This document shows positions 50,795 through 64,000 of a stretch of 64,000 nucleotides of DNA, one piece after another (the stretch's first letter is position 1; each line of letters begins with the position of its first letter). The position numbers were made by a program, and so were the translations under genes. The notes beneath the pieces are model-generated. The model saw nothing but the letters and a program-made list of their open reading frames with translations, searched no databases and was not told the DNA's origin. Origin of the DNA: Terriglobia bacterium (GTDB lineage Bacteria > Acidobacteriota > Terriglobia > 2-12-FULL-54-10); NCBI GenBank assembly GCA_963666975.2, contig CAXVYR010000003.1:1280001-1344000 (forward strand), read 5' to 3'.

Positions 50795-52174
50795 TCAATG
50801 GGCAGCCAAAGAACAGATGGCCGCTGCCAGCGACTCATCCTGCTCCGGAAGGACGGTGCGGAGGTCCAGCAAGACAGCGCCCGATTCTACCCTTACAATC
50901 ACCGGAGGTTGCCAAGACCGCAGGCGGCCTTCCAGCAACGTGGCATTTTCCCCGTCATGCTGCAGGGCTATCAGGCGGGTGGGGAGCGTTTGCCCCGGGG
51001 CCGAGCCGCCTCCAATCACCGATTCGCCGTCCTTCAGCTCCAGACGCAATGGCCCGTTCTGACAGCGCGCACAGGATTCCAGCAATCGCTTGGCGCGGCC
51101 CTCCAGTTCCGAAACCGGAAGATCGATCATCCGAAAGACCGGAATTTGGTGGAGCTGATCTTGCAAATAAGCCAGCAAGGTGGTTTCCAGGACCGCATAA
51201 GTCAGCTTGTCCACCCGCAGCGCCCGAAACAACGGGTTGCGGCGAATTTGCTGGACAAAATCCTTCTTCCCGGCGATCACGCCGGCCTGCGGCCCGCCCA
51301 ACAGCTTGTCACCGCTGAAACTCACCACATCCACACCCGCGGCCAGGCTCATCGCAACGGTGGGTTCCTCGGCAATGCCCCGGGAAGCCAGCGATACCAG
51401 ACAACCGCTGCCCAGGTCTTCAAACACCGGGATTCCGGCTTCCCTGCCCAGATCGACAACCTCATCGAGCGCCGGTTTTTCCGTGAATCCCGTGATCCGG
51501 AAGTTGCTGGGATGCACGCGCAGGAGAAGTTTGGTTTTCTCGCTGAGCGCATTCCGGTAGTCGGCAATGCGCGTGCGGTTGGTGGCGCCCACCTCGCGCA
51601 GCACCGCCCCGCTCTTCCGCATGATGTCCGGGATGCGGAACGCCTCCCCGATTTCAACCAACTCTCCGCGCGATACGATGACCTCGCCGCCCTCGGCCAG
51701 CGTGTTGAGAGTAATCAGCACGGCCGCTGCATTGTTGTTCACTACAATCGCGCCGGGGGCGCCCAGCAACTCTTGCAAGCGCAGGGACACATGCACGTCC
51801 CGCTCTCCTCTGCGGCCGGCAGACAGGTCGTATTCCAGATTGGAGTATTGGGTGGCCACCTCCAGGGCGTGTTCCAGCGCCTCGCGGGCCAGCGGAGCGC
51901 GCCCCAGATTGGTGTGAAGAACAACCCCAGTGGCATTGATGACGGGACGCAGCGAGCAAGCGGCCGCCTGTTCCACGGCCCCGCTGATGCGGGTTTCGAG
52001 AAGCGTCTCCGACAGGGGCTCGGTCCGGGGCCACCGGCCATCGCGGATTTGCTGGCGGAAACCGGCCAGCACCTCCCGCACGCGGACGGTCACAAACTTC
52101 CGTCCCAGTTTTTCTCCCAGCTCCCGGATTACCGGCCGATTCAAGATTTCTTCCACAGCAGGAATCTGCCGCAA
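50795..52174 (-). CDS. selA: L-seryl-tRNA(Sec) selenium transferase (selenocysteine synthase)
   Basis: VINATGVVLHTNLGRAPL, NNNAAA, SRGELVEIG, EDLGSG, FSGDKLLGGPQAG, RALRVDK; frame stays open ~25 codons upstream so start uncertain. Confidence 0.96.
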   Translation of the reverse strand: MRQIPAVEEILNRPVIRELGEKLGRKFVTVRVREVLAGFRQQIRDGRWPRTEPLSETLLETRISGAVEQAAACSLRPVINATGVVLHTNLGRAPLAREALEHALEVATQYSNLEYDLSAGRRGERDVHVSLRLQELLGAPGAIVVNNNAAAVLITLNTLAEGGEVIVSRGELVEIGEAFRIPDIMRKSGAVLREVGATNRTRIADYRNALSEKTKLLLRVHPSNFRITGFTEKPALDEVVDLGREAGIPVFEDLGSGCLVSLASRGIAEEPTVAMSLAAGVDVVSFSGDKLLGGPQAGVIAGKKDFVQQIRRNPLFRALRVDKLTYAVLETTLLAYLQDQLHQIPVFRMIDLPVSELEGRAKRLLESCARCQNGPLRLELKDGESVIGGGSAPGQTLPTRLIALQHDGENATLLEGRLRSWQPPVIVRVESGAVLLDLRTVLPEQDESLAAAICSLAAH

Positions 52175-57927: not shown

Positions 57928-57988
57928 CTACACATTCATTGTGAAAGTATAATAGCATTGTGAAAGTGTATTAGAGCCGTTGCCAGCC

Positions 57989-58018
57989 TTGACAGTGGGA
58001 ACCGCCTGTTCGTATAGT
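57989..58018 (+). promoter_or_regulatory. Putative sigma70 promoter of the selenoprotein operon
   Basis: TTGACA (57989-57994), 18-bp spacer containing GAAC-N5-GTTC dyad, TATAGT (58013-58018). Confidence 0.6.
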
Positions 58019-58043: not shown

Positions 58044-58364
58044 ATGGAATCTAATCCGAAACGCGCAGGCGTTGTGGCCATTGCAGCCGCTCTGCTGGCG
58101 CCCAGTTGATGAGTGCTTCCTCAAGTCCTGGCAGGACTTGGCTTATTGTCGCTGTTGAGCGCCAGCTGCCTGTTCTGGCTGGAACGGTTGCAGCCGGTCT
58201 TCATCACGATGGCGGTGGGCGCGCTGGCCTACGAGGGTTGGCTGGTGCATCGGCGTCCCCGGTTCCTCCGGACACGGGGAATTCTGGCCATCCTTTGGGG
58301 GAGCATCGTCATCAATATATTAGTGCTGGGAGCCTGGGTGGTGCTGTGGTTTCGTTATCGATGA
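58044..58364 (+). CDS. MerT-like heavy-metal transporter, putative selenoprotein with tandem Sec-Sec (TGA TGA at 58107-58112)
   Basis: MESNPKRAGVVAIAAALLAPS-U-U-VLPQVLAGLG...LERLQPVF...three TM segments; UU sits where MerT has ASxCCxxP; hairpin 58122-58140. Confidence 0.82.
58122..58140 (+). promoter_or_regulatory. Candidate bacterial SECIS hairpin
   Basis: CAAGTCCT-GGC-AGGACTTG perfect 8-bp stem, G-containing loop ~18-21 nt after the two UGA codons. Confidence 0.7.
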
Positions 58365-58403
58365 CGGTTTCCAGGATCGGTTTGGTCCACTGAGGAGATG
58401 CAA

Positions 58404-58880
58404 ATGAGCCACGTGAAGTCGCTTTGCCTGCTGTTCCTGCTATCGTTGCTCTCTGCGGTGGCCGCCCCGGCTCAGGTGGAGACGGTTGCGGCGCGGGCCA
58501 GCGGCATCACCTGAGCATCCTGCGCGGTGATCATGGAGATCGCCCTCAGACGCCTGGATGGCGTTGATCAAGTGACAATCAGCATTCAACAGCAGGCCCT
58601 GTCAGTGACCCTGAAACCAGGAAGCAGGTTCGATCCCCAGGGCATCCGGGACGCCGTAGCTCGGGCCGATGTGTCGATTCTCCGCTTCTACGTCGAGGCG
58701 CGCGGACAGGTGGAGCAAAAGGGGGACGAGCGTTACTTCGTCGCCGGCAAAGACCGCTTCCTGCTGGTCGCCTCTCGCGATGTTCCCGCCGGAGAGCCCA
58801 TTTGGGTCAACGCCTTGGTTGACGACAACACCAACCCCCTCCAGATGAGAGTAAACGAACACAAACCGCTCGAGCCATGA
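58404..58880 (+). CDS. Periplasmic MerP/HMA-domain protein, putative selenoprotein (TGA at 58512-58514, UxxC)
   Basis: GAGGAG RBS, signal peptide, then SGIT-U-ASC-AVIMEIALRRLDGVDQVTIS matching the HMA GMTCxxC...ALxxLxGV pattern. Confidence 0.85.
58526..58544 (+). promoter_or_regulatory. Candidate bacterial SECIS hairpin
   Basis: GGTGATC-ATGGA-GATCGCC 7-bp stem (one G-U pair) starting 11 nt after the UGA; lower stem CATCC/GGATG. Confidence 0.65.
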
Positions 58881-59323
58881 GCGCCTCCGCACAAAGCGAC
58901 AAGTCAGAATCCGCACGATATGCCGGACTGTTCCGGAGTCCTGTCCTAGACCACTTTCACCATCCGCGTAATGTCGGTGTCGCCGCCGGACACAACCAGT
59001 CCTTTCTGGAGCAAGACAACCCGTGGCAGGTCCGGTTGCGATTCACCCTGCGTGTGGAGCAAGACGGCATCGCGGAGGTAAAGTTCCAGGCGCAAAGTTG
59101 CGTCACCACCACGGCCTCGGCCAGCGCGCTGACCGTGATGGCCCAGGGAAAACGTGTGGAGGAGGCGTTGGCCATCACTCCCGAACAGCTTTCGAGGGAG
59201 CTGGGAACGGTTCCCCCCGAAAAGATGTACTGCTGCCAACTGGCCGTGGCAACGCTTCAGAAAGCTTTGCGGTCGCCGGAACAGGCCAGTTCCGAGACGC
59301 CCGCAGAGGTGAACAAGGAGTGA
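58877..59323 (+). CDS. IscU/NifU N-terminal-like scaffold protein, atypical
   Basis: VLDHFHHPRNVG, KFQAQSC, ASASALT, GKRVEEA, PPEKMYCC; ATGA overlap with upstream gene. Confidence 0.88.
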   Translation: MSASAQSDKSESARYAGLFRSPVLDHFHHPRNVGVAAGHNQSFLEQDNPWQVRLRFTLRVEQDGIAEVKFQAQSCVTTTASASALTVMAQGKRVEEALAITPEQLSRELGTVPPEKMYCCQLAVATLQKALRSPEQASSETPAEVNKE

Positions 59324-59517
59324 TTACTGCGGAACAAATCGGCGGCATGACGGTCCTCGATGCGCTGGACCTGTCACCGGAGGTGCGGCGCTACCTGCTG
59401 CGCCGGCTTCCCGAGATATGATGCTGGCCGGGGGAAACCCTCGAAGCGGTCGCTTTGAAAAAGAAGATGGACCTGGACGCGCTGGTCCGCATGATTCAGA
59501 CCATCCTCGCTAAATAG
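59320..59517 (+). CDS. Small DUF1858/ScdA_N-like protein, putative selenoprotein (TGA at 59419-59421, U-C)
   Basis: GTGA overlap; MITAEQIGGMTVLDALDLSPEVRRYLLRRLPEI-U-C-WPGETLEAVALKKKMDLDALVRMIQTILAK; family-like pattern on both sides of the TGA. Confidence 0.75.
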
Positions 59518-60058
59518 CGAAGATTTCCTTGATCGGCGCGCGAAAACCGGGGAGGACTGGCCCACCATCCAATTCCTGGTCGGCAGTGAGGACTTTTACA
59601 TCCTGGAGAGAACGATAAACGGTGACTCGCTGATTGGCGGGATCAACCACCCAAACCAAAGGGACTCCGGCCGTCAGGTACTCCTCGACCTTTTTTTGGA
59701 TTTCGCTGGCCGTGTCTTCCGGCGAGAGCACCTCGACAGCCAAATCGGGAGGAAACTCGGCAAACTTCTCAGGAATGCCTTCCTTGGCGATACGGTCCTT
59801 CGAAATGAACGCCACATCGGGAGCGCGCAGCGTGTCCGGGTTCCGGCTGAGGTAGAAGCCGCCCTCCGGGCCAACGAGGCCACACCTGTTCTCCGTCACA
59901 TAGTTTCCCAATAACCGATTCAAATTGGAAACAACCGCAGCATGTCGTATTCCCACAGGCGTCATCGGAATCAACTCTCCCTTGGACAACTCATAGCGGC
60001 TGCCATCGGCCACGATTTTCCAGAGGTCTTCACCGGTCAGAAGCGTTTTTGTGCGCAT
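59510..60058 (-). CDS. Uma2 family (DUF820) endonuclease-like protein
   Basis: RYEL..GEL, RAPDVAF, PDLAVEVLSP, KVEEYLTAGV..VWVVDP, VLPGF. Confidence 0.93.
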   Translation of the reverse strand: MRTKTLLTGEDLWKIVADGSRYELSKGELIPMTPVGIRHAAVVSNLNRLLGNYVTENRCGLVGPEGGFYLSRNPDTLRAPDVAFISKDRIAKEGIPEKFAEFPPDLAVEVLSPEDTASEIQKKVEEYLTAGVPLVWVVDPANQRVTVYRSLQDVKVLTADQELDGGPVLPGFRAPIKEIFAI

Positions 60059-61002: not shown

Positions 61003-62652
61003 TGTGCCCCGTCAGGGCTTGTTGGACAGGTAGAGGGTAATAGTTAAGGTGATGTTTTTGGCTCATCGTAGAGACTGAAAGGAACGAAGATGAGACAAAA
61101 ACAAGACGACAGGGGGGCGGTCGAGAAGGCCGTCCGGGAGATCAAACGCAGGACGCGGCGCAGGTTCAGCCCGGAAGACAAAATCCGCATTGTATTGCAG
61201 GGACTTCGCGGCGAGGACAGCATCGCGGAGCTGTGCCGCCGCGAGGGGCTGCACCAGAACCAGTATTACCGCTGGAGCAAGGAGTTTCTGGAGGCTGGCC
61301 GCAAGCGGCTGGCGGGCGACATAGACCGTGAGGCAACCAGTGGCGAAGTCAAGACTCTGCGGGAGCAGGCCGTACAGCTCATCTCGCTTGCCGTAGATAC
61401 CGTGTCCCGGCACCTCCAAAAACGAGCTGAAAGAGGCCCTGGCCGAGGCTATGCTGGAAAATCGCCTGCTAAAAAAAAGCGTGATCGGGGATGGGGAGGA
61501 ACATACATGAGATACCCTGCCTCGGAGAAGCTGGAGATCATGCTGGAAAATCGCCTGCTAAAAAAAAGCGTGATCGGGGATGGGGAGGAACATACATGAG
61601 ATACCCTGCCTCGGAGAAGCTGGAGATCATCTGCACGGTGGAGCAATCTGCCCTGGGGGTGCGCCGGACGCTGCAGCAGGTTGGCATTCCCAGATCGACG
61701 TTTTACAACTGGTACGACCGCTATGTGTCGGAAGGCTTTGATGGGCTGGAAGACAAAAAACCCGATCCTGGCCCTGTCTGGAACAAGGTGCCGGAGGAGA
61801 TAACTCAGCAGTTGGTGACGTTAGCCCTGGCCGAGCCCGATCTGTCGTCACGCGAGCTGGCGGTGCGTTTTACCGAGGAAAGGCGGTATTACCTTTCTGA
61901 ATCGACGGTTTACCGCGTCCTGAAAAGCCATGACCTGATTACCGCGCCAGCCTTTATTGTCCTGAAAGCGGCGGAACGGTTCGCCAACCCGACCACGGCG
62001 GTCAACCAGCTCTGGCAGACCGACTTCACCTACCTGAAAGTCATCGGTTGGGGCTGGTTCTACCTGTCCACGGTGCTGGACGACTTCTCGCGCTATATCA
62101 TCGCCTGGCGGCTGTGCAAAACCATGAGCGCAAGTGACGTCTCGGCCACGTTGCGGGATGCTTTGCAAGCCACCGGCCTCGACCGCGTGGGCGCCCGGCA
62201 CAGACCTCGCCTCCTGAGCGACAACGGGCCGTGCTACGTCTCTTCCGAACTGCAATCATGGCTGGCAGAAAACAGCGTGCCGCATACTCGCGGCAAGCCC
62301 TATCACCCCATGACGCAGGGCAAGATCGAACGCTGGCACCGAACTCTGAAAGACCGCATCCTGCTCAACAACTATTACCTGCCAGAAGAGCTGGAGCGGC
62401 AGATCGATGCCTTCGTCAACCACTACAACACCAACCGATACCATGAAAGCCTGAACAACCTGACACCGTATGACGTTTTTACAGGCCAAGGCAGTGCCAT
62501 CCTGCAAAAACGGGATCGCATCAAAGAGAAAACTATGATCTTAAGAAAACGGTTGCACTTCAAAAGAAGGGCAGCCTAACATCAACCCAGAGGAGCCTGA
62601 ACGCCACCTTATCTTTTTATGCTCTGTGTCCAACATTATCTGACGACGTACA
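61003..62652 (+). mobile_element. IS3-family-like insertion sequence with 9-bp target duplication; orfA disrupted
   Basis: IRL TGTGCCCCGTCAGGGCTTGTTGGACA, IRR TGTCCAACATTATCTGACGACGTACA, ATTCCCGGT at 60994-61002 and 62653-62661; orfA HTH from 61090, A8G slippery site, orfB DDE integrase. Confidence 0.92.
61596..62579 (+). CDS. IS transposase OrfB (rve integrase core)
   Basis: WQTDFTY, LDDFSR, LSDNG, HPMTQGKIERWH. Confidence 0.9.
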   Translation: MRYPASEKLEIICTVEQSALGVRRTLQQVGIPRSTFYNWYDRYVSEGFDGLEDKKPDPGPVWNKVPEEITQQLVTLALAEPDLSSRELAVRFTEERRYYLSESTVYRVLKSHDLITAPAFIVLKAAERFANPTTAVNQLWQTDFTYLKVIGWGWFYLSTVLDDFSRYIIAWRLCKTMSASDVSATLRDALQATGLDRVGARHRPRLLSDNGPCYVSSELQSWLAENSVPHTRGKPYHPMTQGKIERWHRTLKDRILLNNYYLPEELERQIDAFVNHYNTNRYHESLNNLTPYDVFTGQGSAILQKRDRIKEKTMILRKRLHFKRRAA

Positions 62653-63563: not shown

Positions 63564-63572
63564 GTTTTTAAT

Positions 63573-63689
63573 CCCGGCAACGACCTACTCTCCCACACCG
63601 TTGCCAGCGCAGTACCATCGGAGCTGAGGGGCTTAACTGCCGTGTTCGGGATGGGAACGGGTGTGACCCCCTCGCTAAAGTCACCGAGA
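63573..63689 (-). rRNA. rrf: 5S ribosomal RNA
   Basis: Reverse complement contains CACACCCGTTCCCATCCCGAACACGGCAGTTAAGCCC...GATGGTACT...GGGAGAGTAGGTCGTTGCCG. Confidence 0.97.
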
Positions 63690-63802
63690 AACTTCAATTG
63701 CAAACTGAATCGGAAGGCCAAGTGGTGACAGGACCTCTGCCCTGCCACTCGTGCGACAAGCCGGGAGGCTTGTCGCTACGCGAATGCACTCAGTAAATTT
63801 TA

Positions 63803-64000
63803 TGGTCAAGCCGAACGGGCAATTAGTACTGGTAAGCTAAATCCGTCGCCGGACTTGCACCTCCAGCCTATCAAACAGGTGGTCTTCCTGTGCCCTTCTT
63901 ACCCCGCCTTGCGGCGGAGTTGGGAGATCTTATCTTGAGGTGGGCTTCACGCTTAGATGCTTTCAGCGTTTATCCCGACCGAACTTCGCTACCCAGCCGT
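63803..64000 (-). rRNA. rrl: 23S ribosomal RNA, 3' end (partial)
   Basis: GCTTAGATGCTTTCAGCGTTTATCC and ATTAGTACTGGT...GCCTATCAA on the plus strand are conserved 23S 3'-domain sequence. Confidence 0.97.

Follow-up and report, generated by a model that had tools for sequence, protein, structure and literature searches.

Selenoproteins resembling mercury-transport proteins have been catalogued before. In the available portions of the literature, a 'Mercuric transport protein MerP' and a 'Putative mercuric transport protein' figure among the selenoproteins of an ocean-metagenome survey from 2008 (PMC2398784), and reviews of 2022 and 2026 include a UxxU metal-binding protein (U, selenocysteine) as 'putative mercuric reductase' (PMC9312934, PMC13188914); its accession, NF041115, is given in the 2026 text only. 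A PF02411 MerT-type selenoprotein ('C/SxxU', PMC13188914) and a DUF1858 selenoprotein (PMC9312934, PMC13188914) are also listed, and metal-related roles of such selenoproteins are described as predicted and needing study (PMC13188914). A small group of MerT-family selenoproteins bearing a CU motif is mentioned in a 2022 preprint (bioRxiv 10.1101/2022.07.06.499078). Within the limited coverage of these partly available sources, no UU MerT-like protein and no HMA selenoprotein with a C-terminal tail of the kind described here was mentioned, which does not prove absence. The present analysis concerns a gene at 58404–58880 (+) of a 64,000-nt stretch (the window) from a Terriglobia bacterium (Acidobacteriota; assembly GCA_963666975.2, contig CAXVYR010000003.1, positions 1,280,001 to 1,344,000). 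The gene almost certainly encodes a true selenoprotein, with a predicted signal peptide, a divergent HMA domain carrying a UxxC loop and a C-terminal barrel, and it follows a gene for a MerT-like membrane protein with two adjacent selenocysteine codons.

Selenoprotein gene and reading frame

The gene was read from ATG 58404 to the stop TGA 58878–58880 and comprises 158 codons plus stop when the in-frame TGA at 58512–58514 (+) is taken as selenocysteine (Sec), codon 37 (U37). Thirty-six sense codons precede this TGA; GCA, TCC and TGC follow, the last (58521–58523, +) encoding Cys40, and the frame is then open up to the stop. The resulting 158-residue translation is MSHVKSLCLLFLLSLLSAVAAPA / QVETVAARASGIT-U-AS-C-AVIMEIALRRLDGVD..., with the loop motif GIT-U-AS-C. 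A GAGGAG ribosome binding site (58392–58397, +), also found at another genome locus (L020), is separated from ATG 58404 by a 6-nt spacer. A further in-frame ATG at 58398 abuts GAGGAG, which makes ATG 58404 the likelier start. Table 11 on its own yields just an open reading frame (ORF) of 117 residues, 58527–58880, from GTG 58527, and in public annotation the product is a 'hypothetical protein' of about 115 residues, shortened at the TGA. A first-pass annotation of the window had described an exported HMA/MerP-like protein with an extra C-terminal domain; the ribosome binding site, the TGA and TGC codons, a hairpin at 58526–58544 and the tail of about 60 residues that it named are all present in the sequence.

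For comparison, five genome loci (two Terriglobia, one Acidobacteria, one Verrucomicrobiia and one Deltaproteobacteria metagenome-assembled genome) and 80 metagenome loci were used. The latter were kept from 92 relatives found in one metagenome scan, in which related stretches thus number at least 92. The scan pattern that could match (VMEIALRRL-like) picks close relatives, and the loci represent one clade, not independent events. In 85/85 loci the TGA stands in frame, its flanking residues are conserved and a signal peptide is kept (TGA in 80/80 kept metagenome loci), and all five species genomes have an open, conserved upstream frame with the TGA inside G-I-T-TGA-x-x-TGY. Over codons 24–36 the amino acids are kept while third positions vary (entropy 0.9–1.7 bits; 61 distinct sequences, with Q24, V25, G34, I35 and T36 at 100%), which argues that this segment is translated and is not conserved as RNA structure. 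The N-terminal 36 codons, on whose conservation the first-pass annotation had staked its reading, are conserved throughout (85/85 loci), and homologues have no biological start at 58527 or 58533.

In a word-indexed search of proteins, 46 homologues (104–129 residues) matched about 72% of the query. Of 20 aligned database homologues, 19 start exactly at Met44 (MEIAL), the first ATG past the TGA; these starts are gene-caller truncations at the TGA. The remaining one (P0022) extends over the whole N-terminal region, reads Arg in place of Sec (GIT-R-PSC) and terminates early. Were the TGA an ordinary stop, the 117-residue ORF 58527–58880 would be the real gene, its product would lack the metal loop, and the frame ahead of the TGA would be untranslated. 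Such an arrangement is how 44/46 database homologues are annotated, the MEIAL starts conform to it, and no SECIS (selenocysteine insertion sequence) match was found in Rfam. It is nevertheless extremely improbable, and the comparative data already contradict it: 85/85 loci keep an open, amino-acid-conserved frame and a signal peptide upstream of the TGA, no ribosome binding site precedes 58527 or 58533, the short ORF would start inside helix 1 of the HMA fold, and Cys-form homologues are full length.

These Cys forms were recovered by an exhaustive profile search, which matched 3024 proteins at E ≤ 0.001, 242 at ≤ 1e-10 and 21 at ≤ 1e-30; among the best matches were proteins of 155–183 residues aligned to the profile end to end. 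U37 aligns with the first Cys of their CxxC. A 27-row alignment (A5) has Cys opposite the Sec residue in at least 90% of its rows; Cys40 is invariant there and in alignment A3. The other rows of A5 comprise 21/26 full-length homologues at 23–44% identity, three C-terminally truncated and two N-terminally extended sequences.

The source genome contains the machinery for Sec insertion. Its selB (371.8 bits), selA (563.5 bits) and selD (349.5 bits) all score above curated cut-offs, and selD carries an in-frame TGA of its own. A tRNA-Sec scored 72.8 bits and was called tRNA-SeC with anticodon TCA by ARAGORN, which found no tRNA in the window. The selA gene (selenocysteine synthase) lies within the window at 50816–52174 (−), about 6 kb from the operon of three selenoprotein genes to which the gene under study belongs. 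Contigs of two RNA libraries of one study, about 90–95% identical, cover 58238–58708 and 58466–58826 with the TGA unchanged; because DNA may contaminate RNA libraries, they were not counted as expression. A whole clade frequent in soil metagenomes is mis-called, its real product having a predicted signal peptide and a putative metal site formed by Sec and Cys.

Candidate SECIS hairpins

Two hairpins follow the UGA. Hairpin 1 (58526–58544, +) is GGUGAUC-AUGGA-GAUCGCC, with 7 pairs and the loop AUGGA; it is part of the minimum-energy fold, starts 11 nt past the UGA and is the best SECIS candidate. This spacing resembles that of the E. coli fdhF element. Hairpin 2 (58550–58564, +), with 5 bp and the loop UGGAU, spans the RRLDGV codons. 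As a single sequence hairpin 1 is unremarkable by shuffling (z -1.33; 20/200 shuffles fold equally well), and none of the three UGA contexts folded singly was significant (z -1.33, -0.05 and -1.42). Since the single-sequence hairpin is no better than chance, comparative evidence carries the case. In a set of 42 distinct sequences, pairing was kept in 98.2% of the 504 cells (helix 1 97.6%, helix 2 99.0%) versus 32–56% in slid controls, and 0/500 shuffles reached this value. Third-codon positions are frozen at codons 41–46 and 49–51, and the mean synonymous entropy of the 9 usable codons in 41–51 is 0.31 bits, the minimum among 49 sliding runs; the remaining 48 codons average 1.06 bits. Hairpin 2 was also found in a paralogue of the source genome, and its conservation may be owed partly to the protein motif.

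In sister subfamilies of Acidobacteriota, Sec forms have a hairpin about 10 nt past the UGA that is absent from Cys forms of the same subfamily. Mean folding energies of the next 48 nt were -15.6 (UxxC, n = 8) and -17.3 (UxxU, n = 7) versus -11.3 (CxxC, n = 7), a comparison of small numbers of related sequences.

Predicted export signal and HMA domain

The protein is very probably exported. Residues 1–23 (58404–58472, +) have the features of a signal peptide with predicted cleavage at A-P-A/Q, and residues 3–15 are helical in the structural model. Sec-type signal features were present in 6/6 full-length sequences, namely 1–3 K/R among residues 1–8, a hydrophobic core, A-x-A with its small residues at -3 and -1, and an invariant A/QV cleavage context, in agreement with the signal peptide ending AAPA-Q that had been noted at first pass. 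The mature protein of about 135 residues is predicted to consist of a divergent HMA domain and an OB-fold-like (oligonucleotide/oligosaccharide-binding) beta-barrel.

The AlphaFold model of the protein (predicted local distance difference test score, pLDDT, 94.4; predicted template modelling score 0.84; 56 alignment rows) shows a ferredoxin-like beta-alpha-beta-beta-alpha-beta domain at residues 24–98 (58473–58697, +). U37 and C40, the putative first and second ligands of the U-x-x-C loop, sit between strand 24–33 (strand 1) and helix 38–49 (helix 1). The family profile found solved HMA domains, the best single stretch being ATP7B (independent E-value 1.4e-8), with MerP 1afi at E 3.6e-6, and every solved-structure match falls within residues 19–104. 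Using VIA-align, Ccc2a (1fvq) was aligned at Z 11.3 with a root-mean-square deviation (rmsd) of 1.8 over 72 residues, CsoZ (6ff1) at Z 11.0 and ZntA (1mwz) at Z 10.9 in alignments over 69–73 residues, and MerP 1afi at Z 7.5. Foldseek gave a probability of 1.00 for the HMA fold; these whole-model fold searches probed only the HMA part.

C-terminal barrel

In the model, HMA strand 4 continues (residues 91–106) into four more strands, so that residues 99–158 (58698–58877, +), which follow the HMA domain, are built of beta strands throughout. Residues 91–158 modelled alone gave a five-stranded barrel (pLDDT 93.7, 63 alignment rows). OB folds account for nearly all of its 50 best structural neighbours (highest Z 8.0, best Foldseek E 0.0098), including SSB, RPA, MCM, RNase R, Stn1/Ten1 and anticodon domains of aspartyl-tRNA synthetase. 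Neighbours from the bacterial cell envelope are potempin A (8b2n; Z 8.0, rmsd 2.8, 67 aligned), the NlpE C-terminal domain (2z4h; Z 6.6), YgiW (1nnx; Z 5.9) and CusF (1zeq, 2qcp, 2vb2; Foldseek E 0.046–0.054). A Z below 8 can reflect merely a common arrangement, and the tool places the barrel values in its 'middling' range. 'OB-like' is therefore used for the predicted fold, with no claim on family membership or common ancestry. In that sense, structure prediction supports the earlier description of the tail as beta-rich and possibly OB-like at fold level, with a best Z of only 8.0.

Conserved residues of the tail are R100, G101, F112, A114, G115, K116, D117, F119, L120, L121, P128, D141 and P145. 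No Pfam or NCBIfam model covers the tail in the window protein, the Cys forms or the sister subfamilies, and the C-terminal part of one homologue (P0004) met only unnamed clusters at 0.82–0.85 in the ESM Atlas. The HMA plus OB-like architecture recurs in Acidobacteriota and is captured by no model of either database.

MerT-like partner with an adjacent Sec pair

The upstream gene (58044–58364, +) encodes a MerT-like membrane protein of 106 residues with TGA TGA at 58107–58112 and the motif APS-UU-VLPQVLAGLG in its first hydrophobic helix. It matched Pfam MerT with E 7.7e-6 and NCBIfam merT_RC607 with E 6.1e-6 over nearly its full length. A hairpin, CAAGUCCU-GGC-AGGACUUG (58121–58141, +), lies 9 nt past the second UGA and is a candidate SECIS; a simple scan also flagged it as terminator-like. 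Such a UGA-UGA pair within a membrane helix would be a test case for the action of a single bacterial SECIS on two adjacent codons. The MerT-like gene ends 39 nt upstream of the selenoprotein gene, a distance of 37–54 nt across six genome loci. The UU motif was found upstream in 68/85 loci, i.e. 68/73 with enough upstream DNA; for 12 of the 17 loci without it, the contig reaches back fewer than 400 nt from the HMA motif. The MerT-like gene and the HMA selenoprotein gene are the core module.

A promoter-like block, TTGACA-18-TATAGT (57989–58018, +), matches 11/12 consensus positions ahead of the MerT-like gene. It recurs upstream of that gene in five other genome loci (L020–L024), with TATATA in L022, and no regulator gene was seen beside it. 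Its 18-nt spacer is GC-rich and partly symmetric, at loci whose proteins are just 41–85% identical. Directly upstream of the conserved promoter, a tandem 19-nt repeat occupies 57937–57974 (CATTGTGAAAGTATAATAG and CATTGTGAAAGTGTATTAG); its core TGTGAAAG is absent upstream of the MerT-like gene in L020–L024.

As a separate observation, contigs break at 58086–58148 in the assemblies of two runs (X4 and X6). A second contig shares the 63 bases of this segment with 4 differences and continues upstream into unrelated sequence; a similar stretch of a MerT-like gene start may exist elsewhere in these samples.

Operon neighbours and competing explanations

Two further genes follow at the source locus. 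A NifU_N/IscU-like protein (58877–59323, +; Pfam NifU_N E 9.2e-24) starts in overlap with the selenoprotein stop (ATGA). By eye, the first of the three scaffold cysteines of IscU is apparently missing, and a CC pair stands at the third. A DUF1858-like small protein (59320–59517, +) starts in overlap with the NifU-like stop (GTGA) and has a TGA at 59419–59421 in the motif PEI-UC-WPGETLE. It has weak family matches only (DUF1858 E 0.047, TIGR03980 E 0.062, ScdA_N), and its UC motif is also found in L020 and L021. The operon thus holds three selenoprotein genes with four Sec codons.

The main rival to a metal chaperone is a selenol/thiol redox relay, in which the periplasmic UxxC, the membrane UU and the cytoplasmic UC would swap selenosulfide bonds in the manner of DsbD/CcdA. 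Every component has a redox-type dichalcogenide motif, the weak matches of the DUF1858-like protein include the TIGR03980 'redox disulfide domain' and ScdA_N, a NifU-like gene follows, no MerA is found over its cut-off, and MerP itself can be crystallised in oxidised form (1osd). We nevertheless consider a relay unlikely: fold and profile both indicate metal-binding HMA domains, MerT transporters are the best family matches of the partner, the UC and NifU-like genes are absent from most loci, and no thioredoxin-fold partner was seen beside the operon in the window.

The NifU-like neighbour and selA also bear on a carrier of selenium or sulfur species (selenide, persulfide or perselenide) serving the cell's own selenium metabolism. 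Selenols readily form Se-Se and Se-S adducts, selA is about 6 kb off in the same window, and the family of the NifU-like neighbour handles sulfur-derived clusters. The selA link is not conserved, however, the MerT-like and HMA pair sits in many different contexts, and no known selenium-transport family was matched, and a carrier of this kind is very improbable.

A classical MerP of mercury resistance would pass Hg(II) to MerT for reduction by MerA. Besides the MerT-like partner, this is favoured by TIGR02052 (MerP) as the second-best NCBIfam match (E 2.1e-9) and by the 'Mercuric transport protein MerP' entry in the metagenome survey table (PMC2398784). The TIGR02052 score is only 37.8 bits versus a cut-off of 92.55, however, and the mature protein carries an additional domain. 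No match in the source genome attains the MerA cut-off (best 401 bits versus 454.45, located elsewhere), so that the operon is not a classical mer operon. No mer genes were seen among the scanned neighbours, merR not having been searched for. With tblastn, 72,556 plasmids yielded 2 records, and in each the match was the HMA domain of a P-type ATPase. Altogether, a role as classical MerP is highly improbable.

Proposed function

On balance we favour a periplasmic soft-metal chaperone that would feed a selenium-bearing MerT-like importer; a metal hand-off to the MerT-like partner is likewise somewhat better than an even bet. In such a pathway, SelB and tRNA-Sec would recode UGA 58512, guided by the in-CDS (coding sequence) hairpin starting 11 nt downstream. 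The selenolate/thiolate pair would then bind a soft, thiophilic metal ion in the periplasm, and ligand exchange would pass the ion to the co-transcribed MerT-like protein, first to the adjacent Sec pair of its transmembrane helix 1 and then inward. In the source genome only, the translationally coupled NifU-like and UC DUF1858-like proteins would be candidate cytoplasmic acceptors. The OB-like domain may serve in docking or in oligomerisation.

Several points weigh against this proposal. Selenium incorporation, export and metal binding are predictions from sequence, and the identity of the metal and the direction of its transport are putative. For the hairpins, covariation is weak, with two-sided change in 1 pair only and one-sided, wobble-compatible change in the rest; the stem codons also encode conserved residues, and a search of the whole window at Rfam gathering thresholds gave no SECIS family, only 5S and 23S rRNA. 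Pfam HMA (PF00403) matches with E 1.5e-4 and 22.5 bits versus a gathering cut-off of 24.8, and the domain is therefore called a divergent HMA-fold domain, not a Pfam-certified member; the HMA/MerP-like assignment of the first-pass annotation thus stands by profile and fold and falls just short by Pfam. Among Cys-form relatives some exceed this cut-off (29.6 and 25.2 bits) and others stay below it. Every NCBIfam model scores below its own cut-off on both proteins: the best match, NF041115, reaches 41.4 bits (E 1.2e-10) versus 95, and NF045683 reaches 27.7 bits on the HMA protein and 14.2 on the MerT-like protein versus 375. The MerT-like protein is also below the Pfam MerT cut-off (26.4 versus 32.9 bits) and, by our reading of its sequence, lacks a cysteine pair like that in the cytoplasmic loop of Tn501 MerT.

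Further such points come from the barrel and from gene context. The conserved columns of the tail are without Cys, His, Met or Trp, which makes a second metal site unlikely; the barrel probably adds none. At five loci the UU gene is missing even though sufficient upstream sequence is available. The NifU motif was found downstream in 4/60 loci with room and the UC motif in 3/51, and these two genes are therefore not part of the core. A second copy of the gene in the source genome (contig 4, 113093–113557; L129 3576–4070; motif GIL-U-GD-C) has no MerT-like neighbour, and the protein can therefore work without that partner.

More tentatively, a wider picture may be drawn, which as a whole we hold to be possible but doubtful. 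It would comprise a selenium-lined metal path through the inner membrane, from a Sec+Cys carrier to a UU helix, whose UGAUGA is decoded via a single downstream hairpin; a large, uncurated family of exported 'HMA plus OB-like barrel' proteins switching between CxxC, UxxC and UxxU; import of a scarce soft metal in acidic soil, not mercury detoxification; and a barrel acting as docking module. Selenolates stay ionised at low pH, which would let bacteria of acidic soil capture a scarce soft metal. If metal import via selenolates is true, the known bacterial roles of selenium would extend from redox catalysis to metal trafficking.

Distribution and further neighbours

In a 401-genome sample of the phylum, the source genome was the only one matched by the MerT-like UU profile. 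The carrier profile matched 76/401 at E ≤ 1e-8, but HMA domains belonging to large ATPases make up many of these matches. Three unpublished genomes (G024, G049 and G152) are counted in each tally; the loci described come from others. Other Acidobacteriota genomes encode signal peptide, HMA and tail with CxxC, UxxC ('GMDUxxCAHA') or UxxU ('GMTUPLUAYG'). Most CxxC and 'GMDU' loci adjoin a small membrane protein with a CC or CU motif, and none was found at UxxU loci. In public sources, one Cys form is named 'copper chaperone CopZ' and one truncated Sec form 'hypothetical protein'.

Several arrangements were observed in passing. The second copy in the source genome adjoins a minus-strand open frame of about 900 codons with a CVTCH motif and an open frame that is OmpA-like by eye. 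In L106 (1462–3225), a 588-codon open frame fuses signal peptide, UxxU HMA and tail to about 400 further residues that look like a beta-propeller by eye. L111 (616–2405) and L126 (632–2433) contain a cassette of an ORF of 282–285 residues, an HMA+tail protein (CxxC in L111, UxxC in L126) and a 140-residue membrane protein with LICCALPS. For the LICCALPS membrane partner of the sister subfamilies, hhalign against the MerT-like profile gave 12% probability, and homology is not shown. Pfam gave nothing for flanking proteins in L046, L111 and L126 except an NHL repeat. Clustering of neighbours (86 loci) was discarded as a clue to function, being dominated by alternative-frame ORFs of GC-rich DNA. 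The one recurrent real neighbour is a divergent NHL-repeat propeller protein, whose cluster occurs in 49 loci and is uninformative on function.

In the window, a Uma2-family nuclease gene (59513–60058, −) is convergent on the operon. It is followed by an IS3-type transposase (61090–62579, +) in two overlapping frames, HTH_Tnp_1 then rve, and, after the transposase, by the 5S rRNA and the end of the 23S rRNA (63572–64000, Rfam). RecN and a short-chain fatty acid transporter are also encoded near the operon. Base composition around the operon is ordinary (GC 0.59–0.61).

Comparison with known systems

Like MerP (TIGR02052; 1afi, 1osd), the window protein has a predicted signal peptide, shares the HMA fold, places a dithiol-type loop between strand 1 and helix 1, and is encoded beside a MerT-type gene. 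It differs by Sec in place of the first Cys, by its score (37.8 versus 92.55 bits), by the extra OB-like domain of 60 residues and by a genome with no MerA over the cut-off. Like NF041115 (UxxU_metal_bind), it is an HMA-type selenoprotein whose metal loop contains Sec. In contrast to that family it has one Sec (UxxC) and scores 41.4 versus 95 bits, and the 74-position NF041115 model covers the HMA part only. Acidobacteriota UxxU relatives with the same C-terminal domain are also below the NF041115 cut-off. The MerT-family selenoproteins (NF045683, PF02411) likewise have selenium in a MerT-type transporter and an HMA partner or fusion. Unlike the NF045683 MerT/CopZ fusion, the window has two separate genes with a UU transporter motif, scoring 27.7 and 14.2 versus 375 bits.

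The fold and loop position also agree with those of CopZ/Atx1 (structural Z 9–11), which are cytoplasmic, single-domain proteins, whereas the window protein is predicted to be exported and has two domains and Sec. The barrel resembles YgiW, the NlpE C-terminal domain, CusF and potempin A as a five-stranded barrel of about 65 residues, but has no sequence similarity to them. The metal site of CusF uses His/Met/Trp, and in contrast no His, Met or Trp is conserved in the window barrel. CCS offers an architectural analogy only: an HMA domain is followed by a beta-barrel, and 6fon, 6fp6, 1qup and 1jk9 are in the whole-model Foldseek list. The barrel of CCS docks on its target. However, the rmsd over the two domains is 7–14 Å, the barrel is of a different kind, and CCS is eukaryotic and cytosolic. 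The protein is thus not MerP proper, not NF041115 and not of the fused NF045683 type. HMA and MerT selenoproteins are already catalogued; what appears to be new here, as judged from the sources cited, is the combination of UxxC with an OB-like tail and the UU partner.

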